Shown here one piece after another: positions 3,363-45,478 of a DNA stretch of 64,000 nt. A program made the position numbers and the translations under genes. The DNA lies in the NCBI GenBank assembly GCA_035573895.1, contig DATLZR010000013.1, positions 699 through 64,698 of the forward strand, given 5' to 3'. The first letter of the stretch is position 1; the number at the start of each line of letters is the position of its first letter. Source of the stretch: Blastocatellia bacterium. Lineage in GTDB: Bacteria > Acidobacteriota > Blastocatellia > HR10. The notes under the pieces are model-generated. The model saw only the letters and a list, made by a program, of their open reading frames with translations. It did no database searches and was not told where the DNA came from.

Positions 3363-3423
3363 AGCCTCACCGAAAATGTTGCGCCTGTTGTGGCGCAAGC
3401 TTTCCAGCTCGCGCATTCCTGTA

Positions 3424-6315: not shown

Positions 6316-6420
6316 CAGGCTTCGGGGTGATCCGCAGCACACGGTTACCACCACTACCGTTGCTCCCTTCCGGGCCTGGCGGGGTTCGCAGTGGAACCAT
6401 CGCACGGAGCCCGAAGCCTG
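6316..6420 (-). ncRNA. ffs: Signal recognition particle RNA (4.5S, ffs), small bacterial type.
   Basis: The minus strand reads ...GGCUUCGGGCUCCGUGCGAUGGUUCCACUGCGAACCCCGCCAGGCCCGGAAGGGAGCAACGGUAGUGGUGGUAACCGUGUGCUGCGGAUCACCCCGAAGCC. It contains the conserved domain-IV motif CCAGGCCCGGAAGGGAGCAAC within a long imperfect hairpin. It lies immediately upstream of dnaX, as in many bacteria. Ends are approximate. Confidence 0.7.
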
Positions 6421-6468
6421 ATCAAGCGGGCCCGCAACGCCCCCGCGCCACGGGCTCACGAGGAGTCT

Positions 6469-6561
6469 TGGCGGAGGGAGTGGGATTCGAACCCACGGTA
6501 GAGGTTTTGCCCCTACACCGCATTTCCAATACGGCGCCTTCGCCCACTCGGCCATCCCTCC
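6469..6561 (-). tRNA. tRNA-Ser(GGA), type II with long variable arm.
   Basis: Revcomp: GGAGGGATGGCCGAGTGGGCGAAGGCGCCGTATTGGAAATGCGGTGTAGGGGCAAAACCTCTACCGTGGGTTCGAATCCCACTCCCTCCGCCA. Anticodon stem CCGTA/TGCGG, loop TTGGAAA (anticodon GGA). T-arm GGTTCGAATCC. CCA encoded. Confidence 0.88.
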
Positions 6562-6580
6562 TGAATCCATCGCCACAGGT

Positions 6581-6669
6581 TGGCGGAGGGAGAGGGACTC
6601 GAACCCTCATGGGCCGTAAGACCCACCGGTTTTCGAGACCGGCTCCTTGCCAATTCGGAACATCCCTCC
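6581..6669 (-). tRNA. tRNA-Ser(CGA), type II.
   Basis: Revcomp: GGAGGGATGTTCCGAATTGGCAAGGAGCCGGTCTCGAAAACCGGTGGGTCTTACGGCCCATGAGGGTTCGAGTCCCTCTCCCTCCGCCA. Anticodon stem CCGGT/ACCGG, loop CTCGAAA (anticodon CGA). CCA encoded. Confidence 0.85.
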
Positions 6670-13944: not shown

Positions 13945-14038
13945 GAAGTAGCGCAGACTTCCTAGTCCGCGAAGAACCGCCGGCTTGAAAGCCTGCACTA
14001 CAGGTGGCGAAAAAACGCAGGCTCGAAAACCCGCGCGA
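13945..14038 (-). repeat. Dispersed double-hairpin repeat, locus B: two units, inverted orientation.
   Basis: Revcomp contains gcgcgggttttcgagcctgcgttttttcgcc... and aggctttcaagccgg...cgcggactaggaagtctgcgctac. Intergenic between the S46 peptidase and the nitrilase. Confidence 0.75.
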
Positions 14039-14051
14039 CAGGTGTGCGACG

Positions 14052-22034: not shown

Positions 22035-22110
22035 TGTCGGCAAACTTCATCGGTGCGCCAGGCCTCGGCCCCGATACGACAGAGTGGTCCTCCGAGGGTC
22101 TCCTCACCGC

Positions 22111-22151
22111 GTCAGAAATTCTCGCGCTCGTGTCAGAAATTCCCGCGCTCG
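22111..22151. repeat. Tandem 20-bp direct repeat in the ttcA upstream region.
   Basis: gtcagaaattctcgcgctcg (22111-22130), then t, then gtcagaaattcccgcgctcg (22132-22151). Possible operator. Lies at the left edge of the low-GC island. Confidence 0.5.
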
Positions 22152-22409: not shown

Positions 22410-22886
22410 TCAGCTTCGCCGACTGAACTGAGCGACGGAAAGATGAATAAGGCTGTGTTCATCTGGTTGCAACCCATGCCATTGAACCAAGAGAGTGACG
22501 GCAGCCATGACCAAAGCCAGATGAGCGGGAAAATAGTCCCGGACGCGATGAGTCACACGGTTGACATGGCGGATGCTGATCAACATGGAGTGGACCGTCT
22601 CCACAGCCATCCGGACATTCCAGACACCCAGGACACAAACTTTCATGTTGAACGGATCGCCCCGGCGAGCATCAAAGGCCGTGTCAGTCAGGACGATCAT
22701 CGGACCATCGAATCGAGCAATCAGGGGCTTGAACGTGGCATCATTCACCTTGACCGTAGCACAATCCCAGTCCACCACTGTCTCCCACCGGTTCAGGACA
22801 ATGCCCGATTTGCCGCCCCCAATCCAACGAGGATTCGACTTGCCCTGTTTGCTGACCTGATGGGTCGGGTTTGTACGATCATTTCA
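22410..22886 (-). pseudogene. Degraded DDE-transposase-like ORF remnant (family uncertain).
   Basis: Reading upstream of ORF 22410..22778 in frame: ...IGGGKSGIVLNRWETVVDWDCATVKVNDATFKPLIARFDGPMIVLTDTAFDARRGD...MAVETVHSMLISIRH...YFPAHLALVMAAVTLLV. IS4/IS701-like flavour only, no clear DDE triad. Broken into several frames. Lower GC than flanks. Confidence 0.3.
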
Positions 22887-23057: not shown

Positions 23058-26000
23058 TCATAAGTGCACACTTCCTTCGCGCCACGGTTGAAAGTCTTGG
23101 TATTTATTCCGCCACACGCCGCGCGCTATCAGCCGTTCATAACTCTGGTCGCTGTGTCGCGCCAGCTCGCAGACGCGCACGCTGCCGTCATCGGCTTCAA
23201 AGAAGAATACACGCTCGTCACGGTGACCTCTCGGATAGACGAGACAATCACAGTTGCGCACCCGCTCTGAGCCACTGATACGCAACTCGCGCAGTCCCAG
23301 TTTCTTGAGCGCGCGATCAAATAACTCGCGCACGTCGGGGGCAGCAGCGCGGTAGGTGTCCCAGGCTTGCGCTGAGAGCCAGATGGGTTCAGGCTTTGCT
23401 TGTGCTACATGGTCACGGTAGGCTTCATAAAATGCCTCACCCGCGGGCGACAGCAGCGTGAAGCCTTCTTCCTCTGCGAGCAGCAACCGCACCTCCTCTG
23501 GCAATCCGCGCAGCCGTGCGTCCACTTCTGGCGTTGGGCGCAAGTCGGCATTAATCCACTCAAAGAACTCCTCACAGCTTGCCAGCAGCGAGTAATCCCA
23601 ACTGATAGGCGTGGGCGGCATTTCGATGATGTCACGGAAGGCTTCGTGAATGTAGTAAACGGGCACATCGAACAGCAACCCCACCAATGTCGCATAGGCG
23701 ATTTCCGCCTTGAACCCGCCCGTCGCATTGATGAGCACGCTGCGTCCCTGGGCTTTCTCGCGGCGAATCTGATCAATGAGCGTTGCCACGAGCGACCGCA
23801 AGCCCCGCATCTTGAACCGGCTCTCTGTATAGGTCAGGTCGGGCACTTCTATCACGCGGGTTTCGCATCCCGAGTTCTCGTAGTGCCGCGCCAACGCCTC
23901 CGCGCACTGCTTGCCCTCGACCGTTTGCGAGCACAGGAACACAATGCGCTCGTCGCCTTCTGTCAATAGCCGCGACAGCGAATTGGTTTCGGCGCTGGCT
24001 TTCACAGCGTCCGTCTGACGCAGGTAGTTAGCAAGCTGGTATTCATCGGGCTGCTGCTCGTTCAAATCCCGTCTGGCATTGCTTAGCAATGACGTGCCGA
24101 CAGTGGTCAGAATGGTACGCATAGAAATTGCCCTCCTTACCCGTTTTATGTCCTCTTGGAGTTCGTCGCTTTCCGTACCAACCTCCTGTAGGAGCGAACG
24201 GGCGCTTGCCAACAAAGTCAAAGCATCAAGAAAGTGGCTGTATACTTCTTCGACCAAACCCATCACATGAAGAGCGGCAGCATGTGTAACCTTGTCTCCA
24301 ACTTGCTGACTCAGCAGACGGCTGTGGTTAGCGAAGTCAGCAGCTTCGTCAAATCGCCCTTGCTCTAGACAAAGCCAGGCTAATGCTGCCTCCGTTTGTG
24401 CTTGTCCCAACTCGTTTCCTGCTTGTCGGTCTAACTCCAAACTCTGTCGGTATCGGTTTTCAGCGGCGTCCATTTTCTGCTCGTTGTATAACAACGCTGC
24501 TTCCCGACGAAGCCAGACGGCGCGTGCCGCATCGTCACCAACCTGCTCACACAGGTCAAGCGCTTGCTGGCAGAGAAGGCGTAGGTCTTCTGCCACTGTC
24601 CACAAGTCTTCAGCGCAGGCAAGCGCCTTTGCAGGTTCGCCTGCTTCCCGCCAGTGGTTGAACGCACGGCGGGTGTAATCCGCCCACCGCCGGCGGGCGT
24701 TTTCGTCCCAATCTCCTACGTCTGGTGAAATCTGTGTCTGCTTAACCTGCGTGCGTCGTTCTTCCAGCCATTCCGCAGCGCGAGCATGCAGCCGTTTCGC
24801 CTCCTCGCCTAACCTGGAACGCCAGTAGTCGCGGAGTATATCATGAAGAGAAAGACGATCGTCCGCATCGCGTTCTAACAAATGGGCATCAATCAACCCA
24901 TTAATGGCGTTACTCGTATCAGTCACAGCGGTTGCAGTGCACACTGCCTCCAGCAGCGCGCGCTCATGCGGCTCAGAGAAGATGCACGCTGCTCGAAGCG
25001 CATCGCGTTCAGAATCAGTGAGAATTTCCGTTAATTCGTCCAACCACCTTTTCATGTCACTTGACCAATCGGGCAGATCAAGGTGCAGCAGTTCGTCAAC
25101 GGAACGCCGCCGTGCAGCGAAGGCAGCCAGTTTCATGGCCTCTGGCTCACCACCGCACTTATGCCAGATGGCAAGAGCCTGTTCTTCACTCAACGTTTCC
25201 CGTAGAGCGTCTTCACACACTATGAGGTATTCACGAGCGAACTCTTGCGGCAAAGGGTCAAGGCGAAGGAACTTGTGGACTCCTGTTGGGAGTTCCGTGC
25301 TCTCCAGCACAGACGGCTCTCTACGCCCCAAAAGTAGCAACTTCGTCTGCCCTGGACTCCGGTCTATGGCTATCACCACTTGGTTTAAGGTCTCATGGGC
25401 AAGGAAGTAATTGTCCAACACAATAAGCCGCTGTTTCTGCCCTAGCCATCGCGTCAAGGCGTTCAATCGGCTTTCGTAAAGGTAACTGGCGTTGGTGAGT
25501 TGTTGGTAGTAATCGCTGTCCGCAGCAACAGGATCCTCAGCAATCTCCTTCGCCCACTCGTCAGCGAACGATTTAAGAATGCTTTCCATTGTTACCCGAG
25601 CTGAACAGTTCACCCAGTAGACTTTCCATTTGCCGCTTTGTTGGGCTTCGTCGCATAACTTTGCTGCAATACAGGTCTTACCGCGTCCAGGGGGTTCAGC
25701 GATGGACAGAGTCTTCTGTTCTTCATCCTCAAGCCACTGCCACAATTGTTCTAATTCCCTGTCTTTGTCTATGAACTTCCCGGGAGACGGTGGTGGTGAG
25801 AAAATGCCTATAGGAGAGGGCCTTGTTCGGAACTCCTCAGGAGTCGGCGGAGGCGGTTCTTCTAGCTCCCGCAATTGTTCAGCGATGATCACCGCTTCAT
25901 TTTGCAGAGATTTCGTATCCCGCATTTGCAGCCTAACGCTCTTGTAAAACTCAGAGACTGATGGCGGTGAATCGAGAACTCCCATCGCTCTCGCCTTTTG

Positions 26001-26270
26001 CGCGAGGAACTCCCATTCCTGTTTTACACGGTACGCAGGGTCTTTTATGACATCTTTCACATCGCGCTGACGAAAGAAGGAATAAACTCTCCACCAACGT
26101 CGTATTTGCCAGATACGAATACCCAATACATAACGCATTGCCCTGCGATAGATGCGCAAACGGGTGACTGCTTCAGAGGAATACCAACGGTATACGATCC
26201 AGCCAATCAGTGCTATTAAGAGCGCAGCAAGAAGCGCGGATATGACTTGAATTAAGATCTCTCGCCACAT
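23058..26270 (-). CDS. Large fusion protein of 1070 aa: N-terminal TM anchor, NB-ARC/STAND P-loop NTPase, TPR repeats, CARF domain, RelE/ParE-like C-terminus (Cami1-like).
   Basis: TM: MWREILIQVISALLAALLIALIGWIVY. NTPase: Walker A AEPPGRGKTCIAAKL, Walker B RLIVLDNY, LLLGRREP, and a GxP/GLPL-like HKCGGEPEAMKLAAF. TPR-like helical repeats (EAALAWLCLEQGRFDEAADF...). CARF signatures: MRTILTTVGTSLLSN and SVLINATGGFKAEIAYATLVGLLFDVPVYYIHEAF. RelE-like tail: ERVFFFEADDGSVRVCELARHSDQSYERL. Single uninterrupted ORF, directly downstream of cmr6. Confidence 0.75.
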   Translation of the reverse strand: MWREILIQVISALLAALLIALIGWIVYRWYSSEAVTRLRIYRRAMRYVLGIRIWQIRRWWRVYSFFRQRDVKDVIKDPAYRVKQEWEFLAQKARAMGVLDSPPSVSEFYKSVRLQMRDTKSLQNEAVIIAEQLRELEEPPPPTPEEFRTRPSPIGIFSPPPSPGKFIDKDRELEQLWQWLEDEEQKTLSIAEPPGRGKTCIAAKLCDEAQQSGKWKVYWVNCSARVTMESILKSFADEWAKEIAEDPVAADSDYYQQLTNASYLYESRLNALTRWLGQKQRLIVLDNYFLAHETLNQVVIAIDRSPGQTKLLLLGRREPSVLESTELPTGVHKFLRLDPLPQEFAREYLIVCEDALRETLSEEQALAIWHKCGGEPEAMKLAAFAARRRSVDELLHLDLPDWSSDMKRWLDELTEILTDSERDALRAACIFSEPHERALLEAVCTATAVTDTSNAINGLIDAHLLERDADDRLSLHDILRDYWRSRLGEEAKRLHARAAEWLEERRTQVKQTQISPDVGDWDENARRRWADYTRRAFNHWREAGEPAKALACAEDLWTVAEDLRLLCQQALDLCEQVGDDAARAVWLRREAALLYNEQKMDAAENRYRQSLELDRQAGNELGQAQTEAALAWLCLEQGRFDEAADFANHSRLLSQQVGDKVTHAAALHVMGLVEEVYSHFLDALTLLASARSLLQEVGTESDELQEDIKRVRRAISMRTILTTVGTSLLSNARRDLNEQQPDEYQLANYLRQTDAVKASAETNSLSRLLTEGDERIVFLCSQTVEGKQCAEALARHYENSGCETRVIEVPDLTYTESRFKMRGLRSLVATLIDQIRREKAQGRSVLINATGGFKAEIAYATLVGLLFDVPVYYIHEAFRDIIEMPPTPISWDYSLLASCEEFFEWINADLRPTPEVDARLRGLPEEVRLLLAEEEGFTLLSPAGEAFYEAYRDHVAQAKPEPIWLSAQAWDTYRAAAPDVRELFDRALKKLGLRELRISGSERVRNCDCLVYPRGHRDERVFFFEADDGSVRVCELARHSDQSYERLIARGVWRNKYQDFQPWREGSVHL

Positions 26271-26297
26271 ACCACGCTGCTACCTCCTTTAACCATC

Positions 26298-27335
26298 CTA
26301 TCCCTGCGTTGAGCTGAAAAAGCCATATCCTGCCGCTGTCTTGCTGCCAATGCCTAAGTTGCTTAGCGCCGTTCTCAACCATGCCTCAGCGGTTTGGCGT
26401 AGATGGCTGTCCCGAGACGCCAAGGCAAAGGCAAAGGGCGTGCGTTCGACAGTAAGGAAATACACGGGCACAGGGCTTAGGTAATCTGCAGGCGGAGTCG
26501 GCCTGCCCGTTTTATCTACCCTTTGCTGGTAATAGTCAGCATAGTGTGGATTCATGACGTCGAGTTTCATACGCGGCGCTTGCGCCGGGTAAGCGTCGAA
26601 GAAGATAACTTTACCTTGCCGCTTGGTTGTGCCGAAAACCGCATAGAAGTCACCCGCCAACGCATGCCATTGGTCGAGGTTAAGTGATTGCACAGCCGCT
26701 ACGTCGCGGCACAATTCGTCCCCCTGCAATTGCTCCAACGTTTCTGTCTGCTCCTTCACCGAACCTTCAGACAACAACTGGTTAAGCAATTGCAACGGCG
26801 TTTTGCGCTTCGCCTTCCCACGCCATTCTGCCTCATCGTCCGAAACGGAAGGCACGCCTAACTTTTCGGCAATCTCCCAAAATGCTTGTGCTCGTGTCAC
26901 CCCCTTTACCGCGCTGGCAGGAATGAAAGGTACGCCGTAGATGCGGTGCAGGGTGATGTTGGTCTCTAACACATGCCCTGACCCTAAACCGATAACGACA
27001 CGCCACTCCGGTTCTGCTGTGAACTGCACCACATCGGGCTCATACGACTTAAGCATCGCTTCCCAGCGACGGCTGCACGCGGTGAGGAGCTGATTTAGTC
27101 GTTGGAGGTTGAGCGGTGCGGCTTCACGCCTTTTAGACTGTTGACTCTGTTCCCACTGATTGCCCCGCCGTTCGTACAGAATAAAACGGTCAAGCCACAG
27201 GCCCAGGTTCTGGCATTTGCCGCCGTGTGTACGCACGATAGTCGTAGTGTCATTTGGCAGTGGAAATACGGCTACCGGTTGCGAAGGCTCTGGACGTCTG
27301 CGTCCCATTGGTTGTCGTGGTCTATCTTGGCGCAT
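26298..27335 (-). CDS. cmr6: Type III-B CRISPR RAMP protein Cmr6.
   Basis: GLGSGHVLETNITLHRIYGVPFIPASAVKGVTRA (RAMP G-rich, PxIPGSSxKG-like) and C-terminal G-rich loop GIGSKTAAGYGFF. Confidence 0.85.
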   Translation of the reverse strand: MRQDRPRQPMGRRRPEPSQPVAVFPLPNDTTTIVRTHGGKCQNLGLWLDRFILYERRGNQWEQSQQSKRREAAPLNLQRLNQLLTACSRRWEAMLKSYEPDVVQFTAEPEWRVVIGLGSGHVLETNITLHRIYGVPFIPASAVKGVTRAQAFWEIAEKLGVPSVSDDEAEWRGKAKRKTPLQLLNQLLSEGSVKEQTETLEQLQGDELCRDVAAVQSLNLDQWHALAGDFYAVFGTTKRQGKVIFFDAYPAQAPRMKLDVMNPHYADYYQQRVDKTGRPTPPADYLSPVPVYFLTVERTPFAFALASRDSHLRQTAEAWLRTALSNLGIGSKTAAGYGFFSSTQG

Positions 27336-27341
27336 GGCTCA

Positions 27342-27737
27342 TCATTCTCCTAACTCTGCTTCCGCAAACCGCTTCAGCCAATTGATGAAGGCTAAAGCCT
27401 CGGCAGTGGCGCGGCGGTAAGCATTACTGTCGTTATTCATCACCCACTGCAACAAGGGCTGGCTGCTGGTTGGGTCCACTTGGGGTCTGACCCAATTAGA
27501 CAGGTGCTCATAGAGCAACGCGTGTTCGTCAAGGGGATTGCCTTTCGTCTTGGCATTGAGGAACGCCAACGACTGTCCTAACCCGTTGGTCAGGATATAG
27601 GACGGCATCTTTTGGACAAGACTTTTGTATTTACTGCCAAACTCCTTGCCCTTCTTTTTCACTTCCTCAACACATCTCCACGCTTGTGCCGCTCGCTCTT
27701 GGTCTTTGGTTTGCTGAAGACTTGGCATGATGGTCAC
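27342..27737 (-). CDS. cmr5: Type III-B small subunit Cmr5 (Cas11 family).
   Basis: 131 aa, all-helical. Hallmark MPSYILTNGLGQSLAFLNAK. Confidence 0.75.
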   Translation of the reverse strand: MTIMPSLQQTKDQERAAQAWRCVEEVKKKGKEFGSKYKSLVQKMPSYILTNGLGQSLAFLNAKTKGNPLDEHALLYEHLSNWVRPQVDPTSSQPLLQWVMNNDSNAYRRATAEALAFINWLKRFAEAELGE

Positions 27738-27743
27738 CTCCCA

Positions 27744-27890
27744 TCACAGCTTAATGAATTCGTCTACCGTCAATCCCGCCTGGCGGATAATCGCCAGGGC
27801 CGCCACGCTATCAGGTTTGAGGGCGGGCAATCGGCCCACGCAACGTTTCCCACCTTAACTTCAACAACCTCAAATTCTGCTGCTTCATAG
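27744..27890 (-). pseudogene. HicA-like toxin remnant, frameshifted and N-terminally decayed.
   Basis: One frame after a TAA stop gives GGKRCVGRLPALKPDSVAALAIIRQAGLTVDEFIKL*, matching the HicA C-terminal consensus (KpGTLrsIlkQAGLsveEF). An upstream fragment RLLKLRWETLRGP sits in another frame. Overlaps the 3-prime end of the hicB-like ORF. Confidence 0.4.
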
Positions 27891-28072
27891 TTAGCAGGCA
27901 GCGGTTCGCCGTGCTTGCGAAGGCTGGCGATGTAGCCACTGATGGCATCTTTGATCATCGCCAGCGCTTCTTCCTTTGTTTCCCCTTGCGTCACGCAACC
28001 AGGGAGAGCCGGAGCCGAAACGATGTAACCACCCTCTTCGGCTGGTTCCAGATAAACAAGGAAACGAGCCAT
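27770..28072 (-). CDS. HicB-like (UPF0150) antitoxin-family protein embedded in the cmr operon.
   Basis: MARFLVYLEPAEEGGYIVSAPALPGCVTQGETKEEALAMIKDAISGYIASLRKHGEPLP matches the HicB N-terminal domain. ATG at 28070-28072. The C-terminal 25 aa are probably read-through into the decayed hicA. Confidence 0.7.
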   Translation of the reverse strand: MARFLVYLEPAEEGGYIVSAPALPGCVTQGETKEEALAMIKDAISGYIASLRKHGEPLPANYEAAEFEVVEVKVGNVAWADCPPSNLIAWRPWRLSARRD

Positions 28073-28087
28073 CACATTCACCTCCCA

Positions 28088-29038
28088 TCAAGGTTCTATT
28101 CGCAATTTAACAAGCCCTCTCCCCACCGTTTCATCACCACCCAACTGGACGCGATTCAGTCTCAAGTTTTTTAAAAAATCCAGTACTTCCTGCGCCGTGC
28201 CTTGCCATCCTTGTGGCAGTTTGCTCTTGTCTACGCGCGGCTTGGTGGCAAACAGCGGGGCGTAAAGCAACGTGTCAGTCGGCAGATGCTCCTCGCTCCA
28301 CAGTGCACCTTCCGCCACTGTTTTTGTTTCATTCTCCAAACGAATACGGTTGACGACTTCGGTGGAGAACTGCGTGAAGTCGCGGAAGGCGTTTTCCGGC
28401 AGGATAACGAGACTCTTTGGTAATTTCTTCCGCCAATAGTCATATTCGCTATCCGTCGGCAAAGCGTTGCTTGCCAGCCATTCCGCGATGGCTTTCACCT
28501 GCTGGTCTTCCTCCGCATCAAATGCGAACTCCTCCAGCACCACCTTGCCGTCGGCAGTGACATCGTTGCCAGGGGCCACAAGTGCTGTCTTCTCTGCTTC
28601 CTTCGGATCATGGGACTTATCTTCGGGTCCTATCGCTTGCCAGTTGAATGGTAGTCCGATTGTTTTCGCATCCCGGCAGAAACGAGCAAGAGCATCTTTG
28701 GAAGTTGTCCACGCAAACACGCCGATCAGCGAGCGCACGGGAAAGAGCAGCAAGCGAGCATCACCAGGGGAGAACGCGCCTGCGTGTTCGGAGGCTCGTT
28801 GGGTGTCCGGTCCGAAGACAATTTCAACTTTCTTTGTCCACTCTTGGTCACTGGTTTTGTTCGGATGGTCACTCGCTTCCGCCCGCAGTTTGCCCTTAAT
28901 GCCCGAGGCTTGCACCATCGGATAGTTGGTCACCCGCTCCCGCTGAACGGGCAGGTCCACGACACCAAGGGATGTGCCACTGCCGGCATGAAGCGGCGTC
29001 TCGACGTAAAGGTAGAGCATCGCTTTCGCTTCAAACAT
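28088..29038 (-). CDS. cmr4: Type III-B backbone RAMP Cmr4 (Cas7).
   Basis: MFEAKAMLYLYVETPLHAGSGTSLGVVDLPVQRERVTNYPMVQASGIKGKLRA. The catalytic Asp in VVDLPV is conserved. ATG at 29038 overlaps the cmr3 stop by 8 nt. Confidence 0.88.
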   Translation of the reverse strand: MFEAKAMLYLYVETPLHAGSGTSLGVVDLPVQRERVTNYPMVQASGIKGKLRAEASDHPNKTSDQEWTKKVEIVFGPDTQRASEHAGAFSPGDARLLLFPVRSLIGVFAWTTSKDALARFCRDAKTIGLPFNWQAIGPEDKSHDPKEAEKTALVAPGNDVTADGKVVLEEFAFDAEEDQQVKAIAEWLASNALPTDSEYDYWRKKLPKSLVILPENAFRDFTQFSTEVVNRIRLENETKTVAEGALWSEEHLPTDTLLYAPLFATKPRVDKSKLPQGWQGTAQEVLDFLKNLRLNRVQLGGDETVGRGLVKLRIEP

Positions 29039-30122
29039 AATCCCACCTCCCGATGAAAACTTGACCAAATCCAATTTGACTGAACCGTGCCTGTCCATCG
29101 TCATCTGTGATGACTTCAGGTACGGTCACCTCACCATCGCTCTCAAACAAGAACACACTGCCAGCAGGCACGAAACGGCGCATGGGTTTGTGTCGGTTTC
29201 GTGCCAGGTCAAAACCACCGATCGCTTGCGCGCGCGGTACAGCAGCAGCTACAAGTCGCACAGTGCCACCTGTGATAAATCGTCCCCAGTCATCAGGCTG
29301 CCAGCCAGTAGCAAAGTAGGCAGGTGTTGCAAAGTAAAGTTTGAATTTGCCTTGCACTACGCCGCCTGCCGTAAGGGGCGGTACCTCATCCACTTTCCGA
29401 TACACAGCCGCCTTTGAATCACCACCAAGTTGTAGGAGCCCCTCATCGCTTAATTGCACGCCGTTCACATCCAACCATAATCCTACGCCATGTTGAAGTC
29501 GCACGAACTCCACTTGAAACAAATGCCCACCTGCGCCGCCTCGATGCGGACGCTTAAACTGGCTATCAATGCCGACATGAAAGCGCGATTCGCGGTCGAA
29601 CAACTCATGCTCTGGGGTTACGCTGAACGGTTCCCCATTTAGGTAGTGCTGCAATTCGATTTCGCTCAACCAACCACTTGGGGCTTCGATGCGGGCTATC
29701 GTCCGATGCCAGAGCAAACCAAGCGAGTTCGCACCGACCGTCGGATTGCTCTCGAATGAGGACTCTGCTGCGAACAAGGGGGCAAGTGCGATAGGATGCG
29801 GACATCCTGCTAACACTACGTCAGAGGGGAGGGAGAAGTAACGCATAACCCGTCCATTCTCCTGCCGAGCTATGAACGGACCCCGCAGGCGCAACTGCCC
29901 GTAGTCATCGGCATAGCCAATTCCCGGCACAGACACAGCACCCGAGGCGTAGGCAGTATAGGACACTCCTTTGTCTGCTAGCACTCTTGAGCGGATCGCC
30001 CCTTGCATTGTGAGCGGCGTGGGCGGGAACAAGCTCAGAGCACGATGATCCTCACCAGCAACAAACGGGCGCCCATCGCGGAACAAGAGCACATCACTTG
30101 GCTCAATGAAAATACGCATCAC
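29031..30122 (-). CDS. cmr3: Type III-B Cmr3 (Cas5 group).
   Basis: MMRIFIEPSDVLLFRDGRPFVAGEDHRALSLFPPTPLTMQGAIRS, typical Cmr3 N-terminus. ATGA overlap with the cas10 stop. Confidence 0.85.
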   Translation of the reverse strand: MMRIFIEPSDVLLFRDGRPFVAGEDHRALSLFPPTPLTMQGAIRSRVLADKGVSYTAYASGAVSVPGIGYADDYGQLRLRGPFIARQENGRVMRYFSLPSDVVLAGCPHPIALAPLFAAESSFESNPTVGANSLGLLWHRTIARIEAPSGWLSEIELQHYLNGEPFSVTPEHELFDRESRFHVGIDSQFKRPHRGGAGGHLFQVEFVRLQHGVGLWLDVNGVQLSDEGLLQLGGDSKAAVYRKVDEVPPLTAGGVVQGKFKLYFATPAYFATGWQPDDWGRFITGGTVRLVAAAVPRAQAIGGFDLARNRHKPMRRFVPAGSVFLFESDGEVTVPEVITDDDGQARFSQIGFGQVFIGRWDYV

Positions 30123-33052
30123 TCACCACCTCCTCCCTGTGCTAAGAAGCGCAACAGCAATAACCATTTTGCCAGTTCGATCAGACCCGGTTGTGGCTCA
30201 CTAGGTGATGGGTCGGCACTTGGGCAGTGAATGTCCAGCGCACGCGCTAAGTGCGCCAGTTGTGGCGCGAGCTCTTTTGCTTGTCGTTCGCCTTGCTGAG
30301 GGTTGAGCGCGCTTCCACGATGCCGTTTGAGTAAGCGGCGTAACTCGGCTTCGTAGGCGGCAGGCACAGCAGCTAGCGTGCGGGCTTCGTCAAAAACGGC
30401 ATGCGCGAACTTCATCGAGATCCGTTTGTCGGCAAACCGCTGCTGAAGATCAGTAAGCAAATCCACCGTGTCGCGGGTGTTACTTGGGGGTGTATTAGAA
30501 TAGAACCACTGTGCTCCGGCACGTATTTCTTCCCCTGACCGCTTGAGAAAATGGATGCAAATGGCATTGCGCCCATAGTCTTTTTTCGCAGACTCCTCGG
30601 CGCGGCGCACTGCGGCCAGTGCGGCGTCAAGAGGTGACAGGTGATGCGCGATGGTGATGCCAATGGATGCGGTCGCGTTCGGCCCCATCGTCATCAAAGG
30701 CCTGCTGTTGAACGTCACAAAGCCACTGACCCTCACATCCCGGAAACGAACCTGTATATTGAGCCTGGCGTCAATATTCACTTCCCCACTAAACGACGCT
30801 CGCAGTTCGCGTGCAGCGGGAAGTACTTGATCCACTGGGATCAACGCCAGCACGTCATCACCGCCCGTATACACTACCCGTCCGCAGTAACGCTGTTCTA
30901 TCACCAAGGGGACCAAATACAGCGCGAAATTCGCAAGCGCGCTGCTCATGGCAGCGTGCAGCGCAGGGCTTAGCACTCGCTTGGCGTCAAGCACCGCGTT
31001 CCAACCGGGATAGTTGGAGCGTAAGTCGTTCACCACGGCCGGGTGAAGCGCCTGCTCAAATAACGGTGCTTTGTCCCCGCTCAGCCACTTGCCCATCTCA
31101 TCGGCGTCAAGCATCAGGACGGCGAAGTATTTGGCTGGACGAGGGATGCCCGCTTCCTCAGCGGCTTTTAACAGTCTCCTAAGCGAACCCTGCGCAGCAG
31201 CGACATCAGATTCGGTGACATCAAGATCATAATCGGCCTTGAGGCGCTCGCGAGTGAATGTCTCTTCAAAGAGCACATCGCCATCGTACTTCAGAAACTT
31301 GTCAGCAAGGGCTTTCGCTTGCGGAGACACGTTGGACAACTGAAGGCACATATTACGAAGTTTTGGAATCGCGCCTTCAGCAACTGTTGGCTCGAATCTC
31401 AACCGCTGTAGTATTTGGAGATGGTCCTGTAATGTTTGAGCTAGCCTCTGACCATGCTGTGGATCGCTCAGCTCGCTCAGCACTCCTTCCTTGAAGGAAG
31501 CGACAGCCACTTCGCTGGTGGACGGGAAACCGCCCCGTAAGCCGAGTTCCTTCTCAAAGAACCCACGTTGCACCAGCCGCTTGACCGTACAAACACCGCA
31601 CAACCGCTCCCGCCCACCAGGCTTGATGGTGACAACCTCGCCGGGCACCCGACGCACTTGATTGGCAACATGCGCCCAGTGGTCGCGTGCTGATTGAACC
31701 TGGCTGCGTAGTGCGGAGCGGGTGCCGCAAAGCGTGCATTTTTCGCCCAGTTCCTCGATGGGCGCGAAGTCGCGCAAGCCTTTCCGCGCTTCAAAGCCAC
31801 GCTGTACCAAGTCGTGCAAACGGCTGTAAACGGTGCCGATGTTGACCATCTGTGGCGCGGTAGCGCAGAAGACGTCATAGATGCGCTGAAACTCCCACTC
31901 CGATGGCGGACGGAGCAGGCGGCGAATCTCATCCAAGGCAGCATCCGCTTCACCCTTTGACTGCTTGAAGGACGAGACATCCGGCCAGCGATGAATAGTC
32001 CAATAAATCTCGGGCATTTGCTGCTTATGCGCATTGTACATTTCCTGCCAGGTTGCGTCTGTCGTCACCTGCGCTGTCGTCCGTAGCCACGCCGCGACCT
32101 CATCAGCTAGCGTATTCCAGGCGATGCGGACCTGCTCGGCTACGCGCTCTGCCACGGATTTCGCTTCAGCAGCAGGCAGTAGCGCGACGAACTTGTTAGG
32201 CAGCGTCGCCCGCGTCAGACCGCCAGGATGCGGTGACACCGACAAACCATGCTGCTTTGCCAGCCAGTGGTCAACGAGCGGCTGCCCGCGTAGGCTTGGA
32301 TACAGCACGGCATCGGGACCAAACTCATCGGCGATGACATTGATACCGCACCATGTGAGGTAGGACAGGATATAACTGCCCATCCACAAGTCCTGCGTCC
32401 GCCGCGCCGTGCGGATAAAATCTTGTACGGGACCGACAGAACACACCATCAGCGCCGCGCGCGGCAGGGCGACCGCCAATGCCGCTGTGATGCTTAAATG
32501 ATCCCACAGTGTATGATCCACAACGCGCGTGTCGGCTGGGACAAGGTGCCACTCCTCTGCCAAACCGTTTATGGCATTGTGATGCGCGAGTGCATCAGCC
32601 AGGTTTCGCCAGAGCCAAAGAAACCGTTGTTGCACAGTATTGGTCGAATTCAATGCCTGTGTAAAAACATGGTTCAGAGCGTTTATGACCGTGTTGAAGC
32701 TGGCTTGGCGAACTTGATTCAGCGGTTGCTGGCGACCTGCCAGCGGATGGCAAACACAGGGCGATTGGAGAAAATCTTGAGTGCTCAAATTTATGTCTCG
32801 CGGGAAAGCCGCACGGTCCATTGCCGATGCAACCTGATCTGCCTTCTTCACAGCTTGACCTATAGGTGTCGCTTCAAACTGAGCCCGCGTGAGTTGAGTC
32901 CCTGTGGTGTTAAACAAGGCCTGAAAGTCGCTTTGACCAACTAACCGCTCTATCCGTTCAAATGCCCGTCGCTGATGCCCCTGCAATGCTAATACTTTGT
33001 CTGGCGGATCATGCAACAGAGCGATAAGTTTTAGCTTCCAATCCACGCTCAC
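30119..33052 (-). CDS. cas10: Cas10/Cmr2 large subunit with HD-like N-terminus and GGDD cyclase motif.
   Basis: 977 aa. N-terminal LLHDPPDK. Zinc-finger Cys cluster CTLCGTRSA...CGVC. Palm GGDD in VVYTGGDDVLALIP. Confidence 0.88.
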   Translation of the reverse strand: MSVDWKLKLIALLHDPPDKVLALQGHQRRAFERIERLVGQSDFQALFNTTGTQLTRAQFEATPIGQAVKKADQVASAMDRAAFPRDINLSTQDFLQSPCVCHPLAGRQQPLNQVRQASFNTVINALNHVFTQALNSTNTVQQRFLWLWRNLADALAHHNAINGLAEEWHLVPADTRVVDHTLWDHLSITAALAVALPRAALMVCSVGPVQDFIRTARRTQDLWMGSYILSYLTWCGINVIADEFGPDAVLYPSLRGQPLVDHWLAKQHGLSVSPHPGGLTRATLPNKFVALLPAAEAKSVAERVAEQVRIAWNTLADEVAAWLRTTAQVTTDATWQEMYNAHKQQMPEIYWTIHRWPDVSSFKQSKGEADAALDEIRRLLRPPSEWEFQRIYDVFCATAPQMVNIGTVYSRLHDLVQRGFEARKGLRDFAPIEELGEKCTLCGTRSALRSQVQSARDHWAHVANQVRRVPGEVVTIKPGGRERLCGVCTVKRLVQRGFFEKELGLRGGFPSTSEVAVASFKEGVLSELSDPQHGQRLAQTLQDHLQILQRLRFEPTVAEGAIPKLRNMCLQLSNVSPQAKALADKFLKYDGDVLFEETFTRERLKADYDLDVTESDVAAAQGSLRRLLKAAEEAGIPRPAKYFAVLMLDADEMGKWLSGDKAPLFEQALHPAVVNDLRSNYPGWNAVLDAKRVLSPALHAAMSSALANFALYLVPLVIEQRYCGRVVYTGGDDVLALIPVDQVLPAARELRASFSGEVNIDARLNIQVRFRDVRVSGFVTFNSRPLMTMGPNATASIGITIAHHLSPLDAALAAVRRAEESAKKDYGRNAICIHFLKRSGEEIRAGAQWFYSNTPPSNTRDTVDLLTDLQQRFADKRISMKFAHAVFDEARTLAAVPAAYEAELRRLLKRHRGSALNPQQGERQAKELAPQLAHLARALDIHCPSADPSPSEPQPGLIELAKWLLLLRFLAQGGGGE

Positions 33053-34182
33053 CAGTTCGTCACCTCCAGCAAAGGAATAGTTTGCCCAAGGTCATTCAGG
33101 AATGTGTCCAGGATGCCCAAGCCCGGCGGAGTGCCACTAGCCGGTGGTCTGCCGCGCTGCCGCAGTTCCAACATCTCTCCGCTCTCCAGCAGCGCCGCTT
33201 TAAAGACAGTCATCACCACCGTATGCTGCCCATTCGTCAGCCGGACTGCGCGAACCAAAAGAGGCGAAGCGCGGCGATCGTGAGTGGCCCCTGCGAGCAT
33301 TCCCTGTTGACCGCCCAGCGAACGATAGTAGAACACAATAGGGAGGCCGAAGGCGGCACGCTCGACCGATTGCAGAGTAGGGTTGCCGCCGCTCACCACA
33401 TTTTTCACATTCTGGTAGTCTGGCTGTCGGCGGTTACGGAAAGTTTGGAACTTCTGCCCTACTTCGTCTAGCGCCTGCTCCCACGTGCTCCACGTCCTAT
33501 TCAGCACTACGATGCGGCAGCAGTGGGGGTGCAAGACATCAAACGCCGGGTTAGCACTGACAGATGCTGCTGGGAAACCACCTGCACGGACGAGTGCCCG
33601 CAATTGTGTTAGCCCGCTCGCAAGTTCATCGCGTAGCTGCTGTGGGGAGTGGGCCCGCACCGGTAAGTCCGGCACGCCGGAGGGAAGTTGCCCCTGGATA
33701 TTCACGACCTGCACACTCCCACCGCCGCGCCGCGACCGTGAGCCGATGCCGCCCAGATGTGTCAAGAGCCACAATGATGCTAGCGCCCTTTTGAGCGGCT
33801 CATCGCTTCTCACACCGGGACGGGTTTGTAAGGTCAAAGTGAACGACGTTCTGGCAGGCAGACATTGGCGATTAGTGCGTAACATTGACCAAAGGAGATA
33901 ACTCACTCCGGGCTGGTTGGACTGAAAGCGTTGGGGGCGCGCTTGTCCCGAAATGCGCACGATGACGGGCGAGCCTCTCTCCGTCTCGCCGAATACGGCC
34001 GTTTCCGCCTCGCGGAGTGTCGTCAAGTTTCCATCTCCAATGACTCCACCCACCAACGCTCGCCACCAGAAACGCAGGATGCCGCGAAAGGAGGCCGGGC
34101 GCAATTCTGGATCACCTCGCGGGTCTGCACCCCCGAGGAAAATTGGAGTCACAGCTTCGACATTGAATCGCACTTGTGCCAT
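33049..34182 (-). CDS. cmr1: Type III-B RAMP Cmr1.
   Basis: MAQVRFNVEAVTPIFLGGADPRGDPELRPASFRGILRFWWRA matches the Cmr1 N-terminal RAMP. Gly-rich loop GGIGSRSRRGGG. AGGAGG-like RBS upstream. Confidence 0.85.
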   Translation of the reverse strand: MAQVRFNVEAVTPIFLGGADPRGDPELRPASFRGILRFWWRALVGGVIGDGNLTTLREAETAVFGETERGSPVIVRISGQARPQRFQSNQPGVSYLLWSMLRTNRQCLPARTSFTLTLQTRPGVRSDEPLKRALASLWLLTHLGGIGSRSRRGGGSVQVVNIQGQLPSGVPDLPVRAHSPQQLRDELASGLTQLRALVRAGGFPAASVSANPAFDVLHPHCCRIVVLNRTWSTWEQALDEVGQKFQTFRNRRQPDYQNVKNVVSGGNPTLQSVERAAFGLPIVFYYRSLGGQQGMLAGATHDRRASPLLVRAVRLTNGQHTVVMTVFKAALLESGEMLELRQRGRPPASGTPPGLGILDTFLNDLGQTIPLLEVTNW

Positions 34183-34770: not shown

Positions 34771-35640
34771 CTAAGAGCCCATACGAAAACCCCTCATCAA
34801 GGCGTGATGACGAGACGATATCAGAACGCAGGCCAAATGAATCATCGCTCCATAATGCGCCAACTCCCGCTTCCATCGCACCAACACGCGACGGAACTGG
34901 TTTGCCCGGGCATGAGTTCGCTCCACCACCCGGCGAGAAGCCGGATGCTTCTTGTTCTTCTTCGTGCGGATCGCCAAGTCATCCTCGTGGCCTTGCTTCA
35001 GGTGCAAAACAAGAATCGCGCTCCAAGACGCCTTCGGCGAGATCTCATAATCGTAGCCTTTGTCTAAGCTCAGATGATGCAAGCGATAGACGACTTTTTC
35101 TTCTGGTCGCGGGACGATAAGGCCAACGACCGTCTCCACAGCGACGATTTTATCATGGGTGTTAGCGATGGTCCTCATCACCGACAAGAGTGCACCTCAG
35201 CGATCAGTCAACATACTCCGTTTGGTCCCGCATTTGCCTCGATCTACAGGACCCGGCCTTGTCCCCTCACTGCCTAGCGGGGCCTTGGTGATGACCCCAT
35301 CGAGCGCCTGCCATTTCCAGGAGAACCACAGTTGCCCATCGTAATATCGCAACAACACTTTTCCAGCCTGAGCAAACACCCTCGCGTGGAACCATTAGGG
35401 TTATCCTCCGTGCACCACCGAGTCTAACGCCCGCTCCTGACGTGCAATCGCCTGCCTTGGACAGCCGGTTCGCTGCATATAGATGATTTCGTCACAGATC
35501 CGGTGAAACGGCGTCGCGCGCCGCCCCGGTCTCCCTCGGTTCTTTCTCCCATTCCCAAATCGGCGCAATTAGATCATCGGACACATGCCGTAGCGAGTCC
35601 CTGACGGTCTTGGTCGCCATATCCTCCGTTGATAAGTTAA
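34771..35640 (-). mobile_element. IS5-family (IS427/IS1031-like) insertion sequence remnant. The transposase is split by frameshifts.
   Basis: ORF 34771..35187: ...LDKGYDYEI...PASRRVVERTHARANQFRRVLVRWKRELAHYGAMIHLACVLI (IS5 C-terminal DDE region). ORF 35197..35379: LLRYYDGQLWFSWKWQALDGVITKAPLGSEGTRPGPVDRGKCGTKRS. Upstream fragments MATKTVRDSLRHVSDD... and GRPGRRATPFHRICDEIIYMQRTGCPRQAIA match the orfA N-terminus. Terminal inverted repeats not identified. Confidence 0.6.
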
Positions 35641-35670: not shown

Positions 35671-35859
35671 TTATTGTATGGTCGGGCTTTCGTACAGATT
35701 CCTAATAATCCTGGGATGTCGCTTCAGGACGTGATCGCCCCCTTCTCGAATGAATTTGCTCATGTGCACGCGGGTTTTCGCCGAAAGCCGGTTCAGTTGC
35801 TCCTTCTGCTCAGGATTCAGGCAAATCGTGGTGATCACATTTTTGCCTGATCTGGCCAT
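35671..35859 (-). CDS. Ribbon-helix-helix (CopG/antitoxin-like) DNA-binding protein.
   Basis: MARSGKNVITTICLNPEQKEQLNRLSAKTRVHMSKFIREGGDHVL: beta-strand, then helix-turn-helix RHH pattern. ATG at 35859. Adjacent to the IS remnant. Confidence 0.6.
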   Translation of the reverse strand: MARSGKNVITTICLNPEQKEQLNRLSAKTRVHMSKFIREGGDHVLKRHPRIIRNLYESPTIQ

Positions 35860-36479
35860 AAGGCCCTCCGACTCTCTCGTCGCTACTATATATTTTGTCC
35901 ACAACGATGTCAATTGAAATTAACACCGAAAGTTGTCCCAAAAAGGAGGCGCCCTGTAATACCGGCTTGTCTTTTCAGTCGTCGCAGAGTGGATCCTTTG
36001 TCAAGAGGTGACCACCACGGGCTTAAGACTAGATTAGGACCATAGAAAACAGGACGTCGCAAAGCCTCCCAGCACCGCTTAACGCCTGCACGTTCTCTGG
36101 CTCCTCGGACGCGGATACGCCCAAACCCAAGTCGCCCACACGCTGGGGGGTTTACTTACACACCGTCCAGAGGTGGGTTGGGTGGTACGCCAGGGCGGGT
36201 TGTCCCACCTGCTCGAGCGCACGTGTGGCGGGGCAGGACGTCAAGCCAGGAATCTGACCCTGAAGCACCAGTCGGTCGTGCGGGACATGGTTTTCGGCCG
36301 CGGGGAGAAGCAAGGCAATGGATCCAGGAGCACATTGGGGGGTATTGAAAACCTGGTGCGACTATGACTTGAGAAACTCAAGCTGCGACGCAAGGTAGCT
36401 CGTCCGCAAGCGGTACGCGCCCAGGTGCGGGAGGCAAAAAAGGGCTTGGCGAGGCATCAGCGAAGGCGGGGGTTGAGGA

Positions 36480-37076
36480 GGGAGTAACTTTTTGCAAACG
36501 AGTGCTTGCCGTTCTTCGGCGGTCAGATGCGTTGGCAGAAGTACAAGGGGTGACGATGGTGCAGCGGGTGGAGCAGGTGTATGTGTGGCGATACTGGTGC
36601 TGGCGGTTAATGGGGGAGTTGCGATGGAGGTGGGTGGAGCGGTGGCCGGGGGAGGTGCTGGCGGTTGTGGTGTCACAATGGCGCGAGGCCGGGGGGCCGG
36701 CGCATCGTTTGAGGGCAGTGCGTGAGGTAGGTGTGCCGTTGGTGGTTTTGCTGGCATATACGCTTAAATTGAATCCGGTGGAGCGGGTGTCTTTGGGAGG
36801 TGCGTCGTTGGGTAGAGGGTGTGGTGTATGTGGGGTGGGCTATTGAGGTGAAGGTGGTGGCGGGAGTGTTGCGGGAACTGGCGTTGTCGCCTGATCGGGT
36901 GCGTTCGCTAGTGGGTTAATCCTGAAGGGTGGAGGCGGTGGAGCGGTGAGGGGAGAGAGAACACGGCGTTTGGAAAGACGATTAGTATAAACCCGACACC
37001 CGAATGGGCGTGGTGCGAGCGCCTGCCTCCGGTGGGGCTGTAGGAGCGCACGCCGGAAGGCGTGCACTCCCGGCAA
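36480..37076 (-). other. GT-skewed low-complexity tract. The minus strand encodes Pro/Ala/Thr-rich ORF fragments in two frames.
   Basis: The plus strand is almost C-free with reiterated ggtgg(a/c)g(c/g)ggtg-like motifs. Minus ORFs 36362..36757 and 36840..37076 are Pro-rich (PPAPPP...). Coding status is uncertain. Confidence 0.3.
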
Positions 37077-45365: not shown

Positions 45366-45478
45366 GTCGCGCGGGTTTCCCCGCCTGTATCGCTTGGAGC
45401 GCAAGCTTTCCAGCCGGCGTTTCTCGCAGACTCGAAAATCTGCGCTACGTCGGCAGACTGAAAAGTCTGCGCTACGCT
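45366..45478 (+). repeat. Dispersed double-hairpin repeat, locus D.
   Basis: gcgcaagctttccagccggcgtttctcgcagactcgaaaatctgcgctacgtcggcagactgaaaagtctgcgctac. Intergenic between the amino-acid dehydrogenase and the OFOR gamma subunit. Confidence 0.75.

Follow-up and report, generated by a model that had tools for sequence, protein, structure and literature searches.

A predicted STAND NTPase–Cami1 fusion behind a functional-looking type III-B CRISPR operon of a Blastocatellia bacterium

Introduction

Here we examine a 64,000-nucleotide stretch of DNA (the window) from a Blastocatellia bacterium (Acidobacteriota; GenBank assembly GCA_035573895.1, contig DATLZR010000013.1), which holds a type III-B (Cmr) CRISPR operon at 26298-34182 and, directly behind the last cmr gene, a gene for a 1070-residue protein that reads as a fusion between a STAND NTPase and a Cami1-type effector. 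The best overall explanation, which we consider probable, is a functional-looking III-B operon, carried on an island, that signals through this STAND-fused Cami1 effector. A first-pass annotation, made from the sequence alone, had framed the segment as an array-less Cmr module—a framing that adds nothing by itself, this being the usual state of III-B loci; the noteworthy feature is the rare STAND NTPase–Cami1 fusion, which lies just outside the coordinates of that annotation.

A fused effector gene directly after cmr6

The fusion gene occupies 23058-26270 on the minus strand, 27 nt downstream of cmr6, and has a Shine-Dalgarno sequence of its own (AAAGGAGG). Pfam places an NB-ARC domain at residues 171-393 of the product, TPR repeats at 586-650, and the CARF family Cas_APE2256 at 757-886; the predicted protein is an in-frame join of a STAND NTPase–TPR module (N-terminal 716 residues, 24123-26270, minus strand) and a complete Cami1-type effector composed of CARF, winged helix-turn-helix (wHTH), and RelE domains (C-terminal 354 residues, 23058-24122, minus strand). 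The first-pass annotation had ended the module at cmr6 and described an interference cassette; the operon runs on into the 1070-residue gene, and the description understates the locus. Because a CARF effector gene directly follows cmr6, we read the locus as a cyclic oligoadenylate (cOA) signalling system that includes an ancillary effector of its own.

The identical fusion open reading frame (ORF) is present in the NCBI metagenome-assembled genome (HXF04048.1) and in three independent Logan assemblies, and the same in-frame join occurs in two diverged homologs, P0002 (73% identity) and P0003 (62%); P and L codes are our working labels for relative proteins and their loci, with P0002 on L004, P0003 on L005, P0138 on L053, P0171 on L054, and P0180 on L055/56. 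All three proteins share the join sequence ...RV..(I/V)S-MRTILTTVGTS. An assembly or frameshift artefact was considered and is ruled out by the recurrence of the ORF in four assemblies and of the join in two diverged homologs. Comparison of the fusion genes gives ratios of nonsynonymous to synonymous substitution rates (dN/dS) of 0.12-0.21 in the NTPase, 0.14-0.19 in the TPR part, and 0.08-0.10 in the Cami1 part; with dS at least 1, such low values indicate that both halves have been kept as coding sequence in one frame.

The fusion is rare. Word-prefiltered homolog searches returned five proteins for the full-length query and three for the N-terminal one, and a first scan of genome contigs with the whole 1070-residue protein as query found zero relatives; since the pre-filter limits sensitivity, rarity was assessed with an exhaustive phmmer search of 1.84 billion representatives of 50%-identity clusters. 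Among all of these a single cluster spans both halves, with three known members, and the other matches listed cover the Cami1 part only (mostly free proteins of ~350 residues) or the STAND-TPR part only (~560-950 residues). The STAND matches with E below 1e-30 number 146. All three fusion genes lie directly after cmr6—for P0002 this is read from a contig, L004, that starts with the last 20 codons of cmr6 and continues into the fusion gene. On L004 (3267-8947) the genes behind the fusion are a Csx15-like gene, one for a 1378-residue P-loop protein, and one combining a transmembrane segment with CARF (Cam1-like); on L005 (10001-13203) the P0003 fusion is followed by an ORF with a Can2/Card1-like N-terminus, recognised by eye only.

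The Cami1 half and its internal start

Residues 717-1063 match the PADLOC family PDLC01937 (CARF7--CARF_RelE) from profile position 2 to 343 of 344 (E = 1.9e-116), and the CARF7 (APE2256-type) sensor is recognised both by PF09651 (E = 1.4e-34) and by the PDB Cami1 sequence 8phb (E = 1.6e-16). An AlphaFold2 (AF2) model of this half, built on 52 homologs (mean predicted local distance difference test score, pLDDT, 91), finds in Foldseek the apo and ribosome-bound Cami1 structures 8phb/8phj (E ~1e-19), then Crn1-type CARF-wHTH ring nucleases; its last domain matches the RelE toxins 3g5o_B/4fxe_E at TM 0.71-0.74. Abundant stand-alone proteins of ~350 residues share 77-87% identity with this half, and at columns at least 85% conserved in 51 free homologs the window's protein shows no deviation. 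Cami1 itself is a dimeric CARF-RelE RNase, switched on by cyclic tetra-adenylate (cA4), that cleaves mRNA in the A-site of the ribosome and halts translation (PMC11229360); by analogy, the window's Cami1 half would carry out cA4- and ribosome-dependent mRNA cleavage. It is not a stand-alone protein of 350-400 residues: it forms the C-terminal third of the 1070-residue ORF, with no stop codon between the halves.

A second Shine-Dalgarno sequence, AAGGAGG, lies inside the fusion gene (24132-24138, minus strand), 9 nt before the ATG of Met717 (24120-24122), and the stand-alone homologs begin MRTIL... at the residue matching Met717; this pair is the ancestral Cami1 start codon and ribosome-binding site. 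In each of the three fusion genes a GGAG core stands at an equal distance from the ATG, though the encoded residues differ (RR, RR, KGE). Survival of the ancestral ribosome-binding site suggests that free Cami1 may still be made beside the fusion. The usual layout is seen in L007, where cmr1-6 are followed directly by a free cami1 whose product is 81% identical to the window protein's C-terminal third.

The STAND half

The N-terminal 716 residues match NB-ARC (PF00931, E = 7e-12) and TPR_12, and are laid out as a hydrophobic N-terminal helix, a helical domain of ~135 residues, an NB-ARC NTPase, a winged-helix/helical arm, and a short TPR array. In the AF2 model of residues 1-716 (pLDDT 84.6), residues 2-136 fold into a helical N-terminal domain, followed by an α/β NTPase core, by helical and winged-helix elements, and, from ~523 onwards, by paired helices. 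Foldseek ranks the Pyrococcus STAND-TPR structure 6mfv best, then the plant nucleotide-binding leucine-rich repeat proteins (NLRs) NRC and ZAR1, Apaf-1/Dark, and MalT. Pfam, model, and structural matches agree on an NB-ARC-type P-loop NTPase with a helical/winged-helix arm.

The N-terminal region varies among the family members compared here: residues 5-23 of the window's protein form a transmembrane-grade hydrophobic helix (Kyte-Doolittle hydropathy 2.74), such helices are also present in P0003 and P0171, none is found in P0002, the L043 protein, or P0138, and the N-terminus of P0180 is a TIR domain. The first 165 residues of the window's protein are helical and fast-evolving (dN about 1), and matched no known effector domain or family.

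A Cmr-linked group of STAND proteins

An alignment of the STAND part, used as query against contigs from genomes and metagenomes, retrieved 44 loci, and the closest relatives were additionally looked up singly. A neighbour-joining tree of the NTPase region places seven Cmr-linked proteins (those of the window and L043, P0002, P0003, P0138, P0171, and P0180) together, apart from 13 non-linked or unplaced relatives, and all seven are encoded directly after cmr6. That these proteins form a Cmr-linked STAND clade is likely; the small sample and a tree without support values hold the claim to that strength. Sequence motifs run along the same division: the P-loop reads GRGK[TS] in six of the seven (DRGKS in P0171) versus GQGKT in most others, and Walker B ends in [DE]N in clade members where it was found or aligned, versus DD in non-CRISPR relatives.

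The four unfused members differ in what comes next. At L043 (FWPU01004506.1, region 1-21335, the nearest related operon to the window's Cmr genes) cmr6 is followed by a STAND-TPR gene of 897 codons and then, with a 4-nt overlap, by a CARF3 gene; at L053 by P0138 (881 residues), a 126-residue ORF, and cas6; at L054 by P0171 (865 residues) and a SAVED gene; and at L055/56 by P0180 (876 residues, N-terminal TIR), cas2, and a gene fusing reverse transcriptase (RT) to Cas1, with cas6 further on and on the opposite strand in L055. P0180, a TIR-STAND-TPR protein, occupies L055 8607-11237, and Cas10 is split there into two ORFs. The full gene order in L043 is csx16-like, a second Cami1 subfamily, cmr1-6, the unfused STAND-TPR gene, CARF3, a short CARF gene, PIN, Csx3-AAA, RT-PrimPol, cas1, cas2, and an array of 12 repeats (repeat GTGAGAATAGTCTGACCGGCTTAAACGGGATTGAAAC, the repeat ending in ...ATTGAAAC).

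The idea that every STAND-TPR relative is CRISPR-linked was considered and does not hold: in 43 of the 44 scan loci the flanks retrieved contain neither Cmr nor Cami1 relatives. L043 is the only scan locus with Cmr genes, and the closest relatives, those looked up singly, are Cmr-linked. Many of the non-CRISPR relatives, from Fervidibacter and its allies, adjoin a conserved block of five proteins (~740, 217, 390, 397, and 885 residues), seen in L006 (1849-9883), L010, L012, L014, L017, L033, and L042 and without a Pfam or PADLOC match; this block may be an undescribed multi-gene system around a STAND NTPase.

The Cmr operon

Cmr genes were called from NCBIfam bit scores against the curated cut-offs of equivalog models, supplemented by Pfam and PADLOC. 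All six lie on the minus strand in the order cmr1, cas10/cmr2, cmr3, cmr4, cmr5, cmr6, at the positions first proposed for them, and all score above their cut-offs. In that order they are cmr1 (377 residues, 33049-34182; TIGR01894 71 bits against 28.7, RAMPs PF03787 E = 1.4e-22); cas10/cmr2 (977 residues, 30119-33052; TIGR02577 260 against 79), with an HD-type N-terminus, zinc-finger cysteines, a GGDD palm, and Pfam matches to Cmr2_N and a second palm domain, Palm2 (PF12469 E = 1e-34, PF22335 E = 9e-26); cmr3 (363 residues, 29031-30122; TIGR01888 117.5 against 100.4, PF09700 E = 1e-56); cmr4 (316 residues from M23, 28088-29038 within an ORF reaching 29104; TIGR02580 237 against 87); cmr5/cas11 (128 residues, 27342-27728; TIGR01881 91 against 28, PF09701 E = 5e-40); and cmr6 (345 residues, 26298-27335; TIGR01898 157 against 51). 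The M23 start of cmr4 is the one called in three Logan assemblies. A Cmr2-type Cas10 together with Cmr1, Cmr3, Cmr4, Cmr5, and Cmr6 in a single operon assigns the system to type III-B.

The catalytic motifs reported earlier can all be read in the translations: the Cmr4 aspartate within GVVDLPVQRE, the Cas10 palm as YTGGDDVLAL, and the N-terminal LLHDPPDK. For the last of these, the Cas10 N-terminus aligns with the start of full-length P. furiosus Cmr2 (LHDPPDK...H..R; PADTR..DH..W.HL; PDB 4w8y) and with the AD..AS..DR motif of S. islandicus Cmr2 (PDB 6s6b), and LLHDPPDK is on this alignment evidence more than a chance HD. Set against L043, cmr1, cmr4, and cmr5 are under purifying selection, with dN/dS of 0.08-0.14 at unsaturated dS (cmr1: 0.14, 80% amino acid identity). 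All eight ORFs of the locus, those of the effector and the inserted gene described below included, are intact, each with its own Shine-Dalgarno sequence. Our reading is of a functional-looking type III-B operon, which lies on a lower-GC island of ~14 kb.

The genes had been thought to be coupled throughout by overlaps of 4-8 nt. This is so for cmr1/cas10 (4 nt), cas10/cmr3 (4 nt), and cmr3/cmr4 (8 nt, given the M23 start); the remaining junctions are gapped, by a 344-bp insertion between cmr4 and cmr5, by 6 nt between cmr5 and cmr6, and by the 27 nt before the effector gene. Overlap coupling is therefore incomplete, because a hicB-like insertion splits cmr4 from cmr5. The insertion (27734-28090, minus strand) carries an ORF of 100 codons at 27770-28072, the first ~65-70 residues of which form a HicB-type antitoxin domain (HicB_lk_antitox, PF15919, E = 7e-10; PDB HicB 6u0i/6hpb, E = 2e-6). 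It is flanked by two exact copies of the 13-nt sequence TGATGGGAGGTGA, at 27734-27746 and 28078-28090, which comprises the cmr4 stop codon and the cmr5 Shine-Dalgarno sequence and occurs exactly twice in the window versus 0.02 times expected. In the gene tables covering this stretch, cmr4 leads directly to cmr5 in L005, L007/L008, L053, L054, and L055, and the undisturbed junction can be read in L043 (CAGGAGGTGACCACCATG) and L005. No ORF for a HicA toxin adjoins the hicB-like ORF, and its in-frame tail has no match to a DNA-binding C-terminal domain. A 31-residue out-of-frame tail, VGRLPALKPDSVAALAIIRQAGLTVDEFIKL, resembles a HicA C-terminus by eye and was tried as a HicA remnant; a Pfam scan gave no hit and thus no support for the candidate.

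The array-less locus and its island

Repeat searches, Tandem Repeats Finder, and Rfam found no CRISPR-like array in the window, and a Pfam scan (nearly all ORFs of at least 150 residues passing a filter on third-position GC content, GC3, plus several smaller ORFs) found no cas6, cas1, cas2, or other cas gene outside 23058-34182, where the recognisable genes are housekeeping ones (recR, dnaX, urocanase, pyruvate:ferredoxin oxidoreductase subunits, ttcA, fumarase, and others). A tblastn search of the window, the region upstream of cmr1 included, with the Cas6-like proteins of L005 and L007 detected no Cas6 remnants, and the L043 repeat is absent from the window even when three mismatches are allowed. 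The absence of array, cas6, and cas1/cas2 noted at first sight is thus borne out, over a window that covers 64,000 of the source contig's 64,842 bases and leaves at most 842 bases beyond it. Most III-B, III-C, III-E, and III-F loci have no CRISPR array, and most type III systems apparently rely on Cas6 supplied in trans by other loci (PMC12669027, the 2025 classification). Since this is the published norm for III-B, an array-less, cas6-less Cmr locus is ordinary. It is reasonable to suppose that CRISPR RNA (crRNA) and Cas6 are borrowed from elsewhere in the genome.

Comparison with related Cmr loci, which the first-pass annotation had proposed, shows no hicB insertion where the gene tables cover cmr4 and cmr5, and the relatives often do have cas6 or adaptation genes. 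A cas6 gene lies beside the operon in L005, L053, and L055; cas1, cas2, and RT-PrimPol in L043; cas2 without cas1 in L053; and cas2 with RT-Cas1 in L055. Arrays accompany L043 (12 repeats) and L055 (two repeats). Upstream of cmr1, where L005 and L007 have cas6-like genes, the window has a weak DDE-transposase fragment, broken ORFs, and a small ribbon-helix-helix (RHH) gene; those of L007 are cas6-like fragments.

The island itself spans ~22.0-36.4 kb, between ttcA on one side and a cytochrome c gene on the other, with GC of 0.52-0.57 over ~22-36.4 kb versus ~0.61 in the flanks and GC3 of 0.55-0.63 in island genes versus 0.65-0.80 in flanking genes. An exact 15-nt direct repeat, GACCGTCTCCACAGC, brackets the Cmr and effector cassette (22593-22607 and 35128-35142); it could mark the ends of an acquired segment or be due to chance. 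That both flanks of the island derive from copies of a single insertion sequence (IS) was also considered and rejected, the 15-nt identity of GACCGTCTCCACAGC being all that was found (blastn E = 0.006). The transposase fragment (DDE_Tnp_4, 34771-35187, minus strand) is weak, at E = 0.0044 and 17.1 bits versus a Pfam cut-off of 24.8, and the ORFs near it are broken; the RHH gene (35671-35913, minus strand; RHH_3 E = 2e-8) has an 11/12 match to a sigma-70-like promoter at 35913-35885. The lower GC and GC3, the transposase fragment and RHH gene upstream of cmr1, and the bracketing repeat uphold the earlier description of the module as island-borne.

Short 21-bp tandem repeats occur at 22108-22149, on the island's left edge directly behind ttcA, and at 55920-55979. 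At the right edge, 36362-37000 is G-rich with strong GC skew and holds a minus-strand ORF of 131 residues, rich in Pro, Ala, and Thr and without a family match. Scattered in the housekeeping part are short palindromic intergenic repeats with the core GCAGACTCGAAAGTCTGCGCTACA (3387-3530, 13969-14049, 45426-45476, and 59841-59976), which resemble repetitive extragenic palindromic (REP) sequences or miniature inverted-repeat transposable elements (MITEs), and the minus strand of 6317-6669 encodes the signal recognition particle RNA and a pair of adjacent tRNA-Ser genes (GGA, CGA).

Proposed mechanism and alternatives

In the mechanism we propose, the six Cmr proteins would assemble on crRNA from an array, and with a Cas6, encoded elsewhere. 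Cmr4, in which the catalytic motif is present, would cut bound target RNA as other members of its family do; the GGDD palm of Cas10, likewise present, would by the same token make cOA, most likely cA4; and the HD-type N-terminus may add DNase activity. The cA4 would be read by the gene directly downstream of cmr6—its CARF dimer would bind the messenger and RelE would cleave ribosome-bound mRNA. Our best guess is that the contribution of the STAND-TPR half to the cA4 response is nucleotide-dependent oligomerisation or partner binding; the hydrophobic N-terminal helix may anchor the window's protein in the membrane, and free Cami1, probably made as well from the conserved internal ribosome-binding site, could pair with the fused protein.

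How the STAND-TPR half might act is a matter of speculation. Oligomerisation might bring CARF-RelE units together or keep them apart; the TPR array might dock on the Cmr complex, by analogy with TPR-CHAT in type III-E, where Craspase works by TPR-mediated docking onto the type III effector complex; or the design might be STAND-centred, with CARF as sensor and the N-terminal domain as effector. A real contribution of the STAND part is favoured by P0003, which has lost RelE, and by P0180 with its TIR domain; the retained internal start and the very high sequence identity with free Cami1 point to a more limited one.

Several observations weigh against our account of the locus. The P0003 fusion has no RelE domain, so the fusion owes its persistence to something other than RelE activity in at least this lineage; the STAND-TPR-CARF core persists there without it. 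In the NTPase the first P-loop glycine is replaced (EPPGRGKT) and Walker B reads LIVLDN, with DN rather than DD; GK and the first aspartate are kept, and on these substitutions the domain may bind nucleotide yet not hydrolyse it. The neighbour-joining tree behind the clade comprises only ~20 sequences. A hicB cassette has landed within the operon, and no source of crRNA is visible within the window. Finally, clade relatives (L043, L053, and L055) often retain an array, cas6, or cas1/cas2 at the locus, which, along with the IS debris at the position of the cas6-like genes of L005 and L007, marks the window's copy as a reduced one.

These last points could also mean that the operon is a decaying orphan, severed from cas6, adaptation genes, and array by an IS-mediated rearrangement and, having no crRNA, heading to loss. 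The better-equipped relatives, the weak transposase fragment and broken ORFs upstream of cmr1, the hicB insertion, and the cas6-like fragments of L007—which imply that cas6 decay occurs in the lineage—all speak for such a history; however, eight intact ORFs each keep a Shine-Dalgarno sequence, the catalytic motifs are present, the Cami1 half does not deviate from conserved columns, the same sequence recurs in four assemblies, and use of crRNA in trans is the rule for III-B (PMC12669027), which makes this reading quite improbable in our judgement. CRISPR arrays often break metagenomic assemblies, and an ordinary complete locus with its array or cas6 just outside the window had been named earlier as what would overturn the array-less description. 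The flanks, however, are housekeeping DNA without a cas gene or repeat for 22 kb on one side and ~28 kb on the other, and the contig runs only 842 bases past the window; because the window is nearly the whole contig, an adjoining array is excluded for practical purposes, and we give this explanation hardly any credence.

Two further alternatives concern the effector. The working protein may be an ordinary free Cami1 translated from the internal ribosome-binding site, with the STAND join a functionless, tolerated loss of a stop codon. This would account for the AAGGAGG 9 nt before Met717, the GGAG core kept in three of three fusion genes despite codon differences, stand-alone homologs that start exactly at the Met717 equivalent, the identity of up to 87% to free proteins, and the separate STAND and CARF genes of L043, which overlap by 4 nt. 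Yet no stop codon has been regained in three lineages at saturated or nearly saturated synonymous divergence, so every STAND polypeptide must carry the CARF module, and the TPR array is shorter in the fused proteins (716 residues before the join, versus 865-897 in unfused relatives), which looks like remodelling, not simple read-through; we regard a functionless join as unlikely. In the other alternative, an NLR-like protein senses its ligand through CARF: cA4 would drive STAND oligomerisation, the N-terminal domain (a membrane-inserting helix here, TIR in P0180) would be the main effector, and RelE would be optional. P0003, which keeps STAND-TPR-CARF-wHTH under purifying selection without RelE, fits this well, as do an N-terminal domain that varies the way STAND effector domains do (TIR in P0180; helices of transmembrane grade in P0003, P0171, and the window's protein), a sensor gene, CARF or SAVED, next in line at two of four unfused loci, and a fold nearest the 6mfv STAND-TPR protein and then plant NLR, Apaf-1, and MalT. 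Against it stand the fast-evolving N-terminal 165 residues (dN about 1) with no known effector domain matched, the missing hydrophobic helix in P0002, the L043 protein, and P0138, and the DN of Walker B, and we think a STAND-centred effector improbable, if well worth keeping in mind. A wider proposal, which we put forward as doubtful but somewhat less so, is that the STAND-TPR proteins following Cmr are an undescribed class of III-B ancillary proteins that couple CRISPR RNA sensing to NLR-style, oligomerisation-driven activation; in the window, with CARF built in, cA4 would assemble a resistosome-like complex with RelE and a membrane-inserting N-terminus. The signalling III-B operon with a STAND-fused Cami1 effector, as set out above, is the account we prefer.

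Relation to known systems

The window's Cmr module is like the canonical ones of P. furiosus, S. islandicus, and T. thermophilus (4w8y, 6s6b) in its six subunits and their order, the Cmr4 aspartate, GGDD, and the HD-type N-terminus, and like most III-B loci it has no adjacent array (PMC12669027); unlike canonical Cmr, it has a hicB-like cassette between cmr4 and cmr5 and a seventh, STAND-class gene after cmr6. The effector resembles Cami1 (8phb, 8phj) in its end-to-end CARF7-RelE profile match, its folds, and a position after cmr6 shared with the free gene of L007; unlike in Cami1 itself, these domains make up the last third of a longer protein and have a STAND NTPase-TPR module in front of them. 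Identity between the window's Cami1 half and the crystallised Allochromatium Cami1 is ~22%, and the window's half belongs to a different subfamily, of ~350 residues. Cami1 is a common effector: a survey of 1113 type III loci found it in 135, and the STAND fusion is not among its entries (PMC11229360).

STAND NTPases with TPR repeats have been described beside reduced I-E systems of Streptomyces that have no adaptation genes or array (10.1101/270033, Shmakov et al. 2018 preprint; PMC8730458). Their partner is a Cascade that lacks Cas3, and they carry no CARF; in our locus, by contrast, the STAND module is fused to a cOA sensor and accompanies a catalytically intact-looking Cmr with its cyclase—a distinction drawn from the descriptions of the two. 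Closer in context is C3a198, a three-gene III-B accessory cluster whose product is called only a 'TPR protein', with no NTPase, CARF fusion, or function described (Shah et al. 2018, PMC6546367). The PADLOC family PDLC01169 ('TPR repeats containing protein'), which we assume to correspond to the C3a198 cluster, matches the unfused STAND protein of L043 at E = 7.8e-14 and the window's protein weakly (E = 1.9e-4).

Avs and other NLR-like defence proteins have the same layout of a variable N-terminal domain, a nucleotide-binding oligomerisation domain, and TPR repeats, and the folds lie near 6mfv, plant NLR, Apaf-1, and MalT; unlike in Avs, the C-terminus of the window's protein is a sensor of a nucleotide second messenger plus an RNase, not purely protein-sensing repeats. 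The 1070-residue protein matched 26 PADLOC families, and the 25 listed are CARF, Csm6/Csx1, or TPR models, with no Avs among those listed. Unlike the type III-E protein TPR-CHAT (Csx29), the window's effector has no protease. In the literature searched, coverage of which is incomplete, neither a STAND-CARF fusion nor a Cmr-linked STAND family is described; because of that incomplete coverage, this absence is weak evidence of novelty.

Implications

To our knowledge, the ancillary effectors of type III systems described until now couple cOA sensing to a simple output, enzymatic or at the membrane. The other great family of immune switches, the STAND/NLR proteins, is set off when ligand binds directly and the proteins oligomerise. 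The window's effector places cOA sensing and a STAND switch in one predicted polypeptide, and its STAND part comes from a group found behind cmr6 in all seven loci—apparently a small, undescribed clade. For questions of function this clade offers a small comparative series, with fused, CARF-adjacent, SAVED-adjacent, and TIR-tipped members. If it is true that the STAND half modulates, or is driven by, the response to cA4, the fusion would be a natural link between second-messenger and NLR-type immunity, and a compact system in which to test it.

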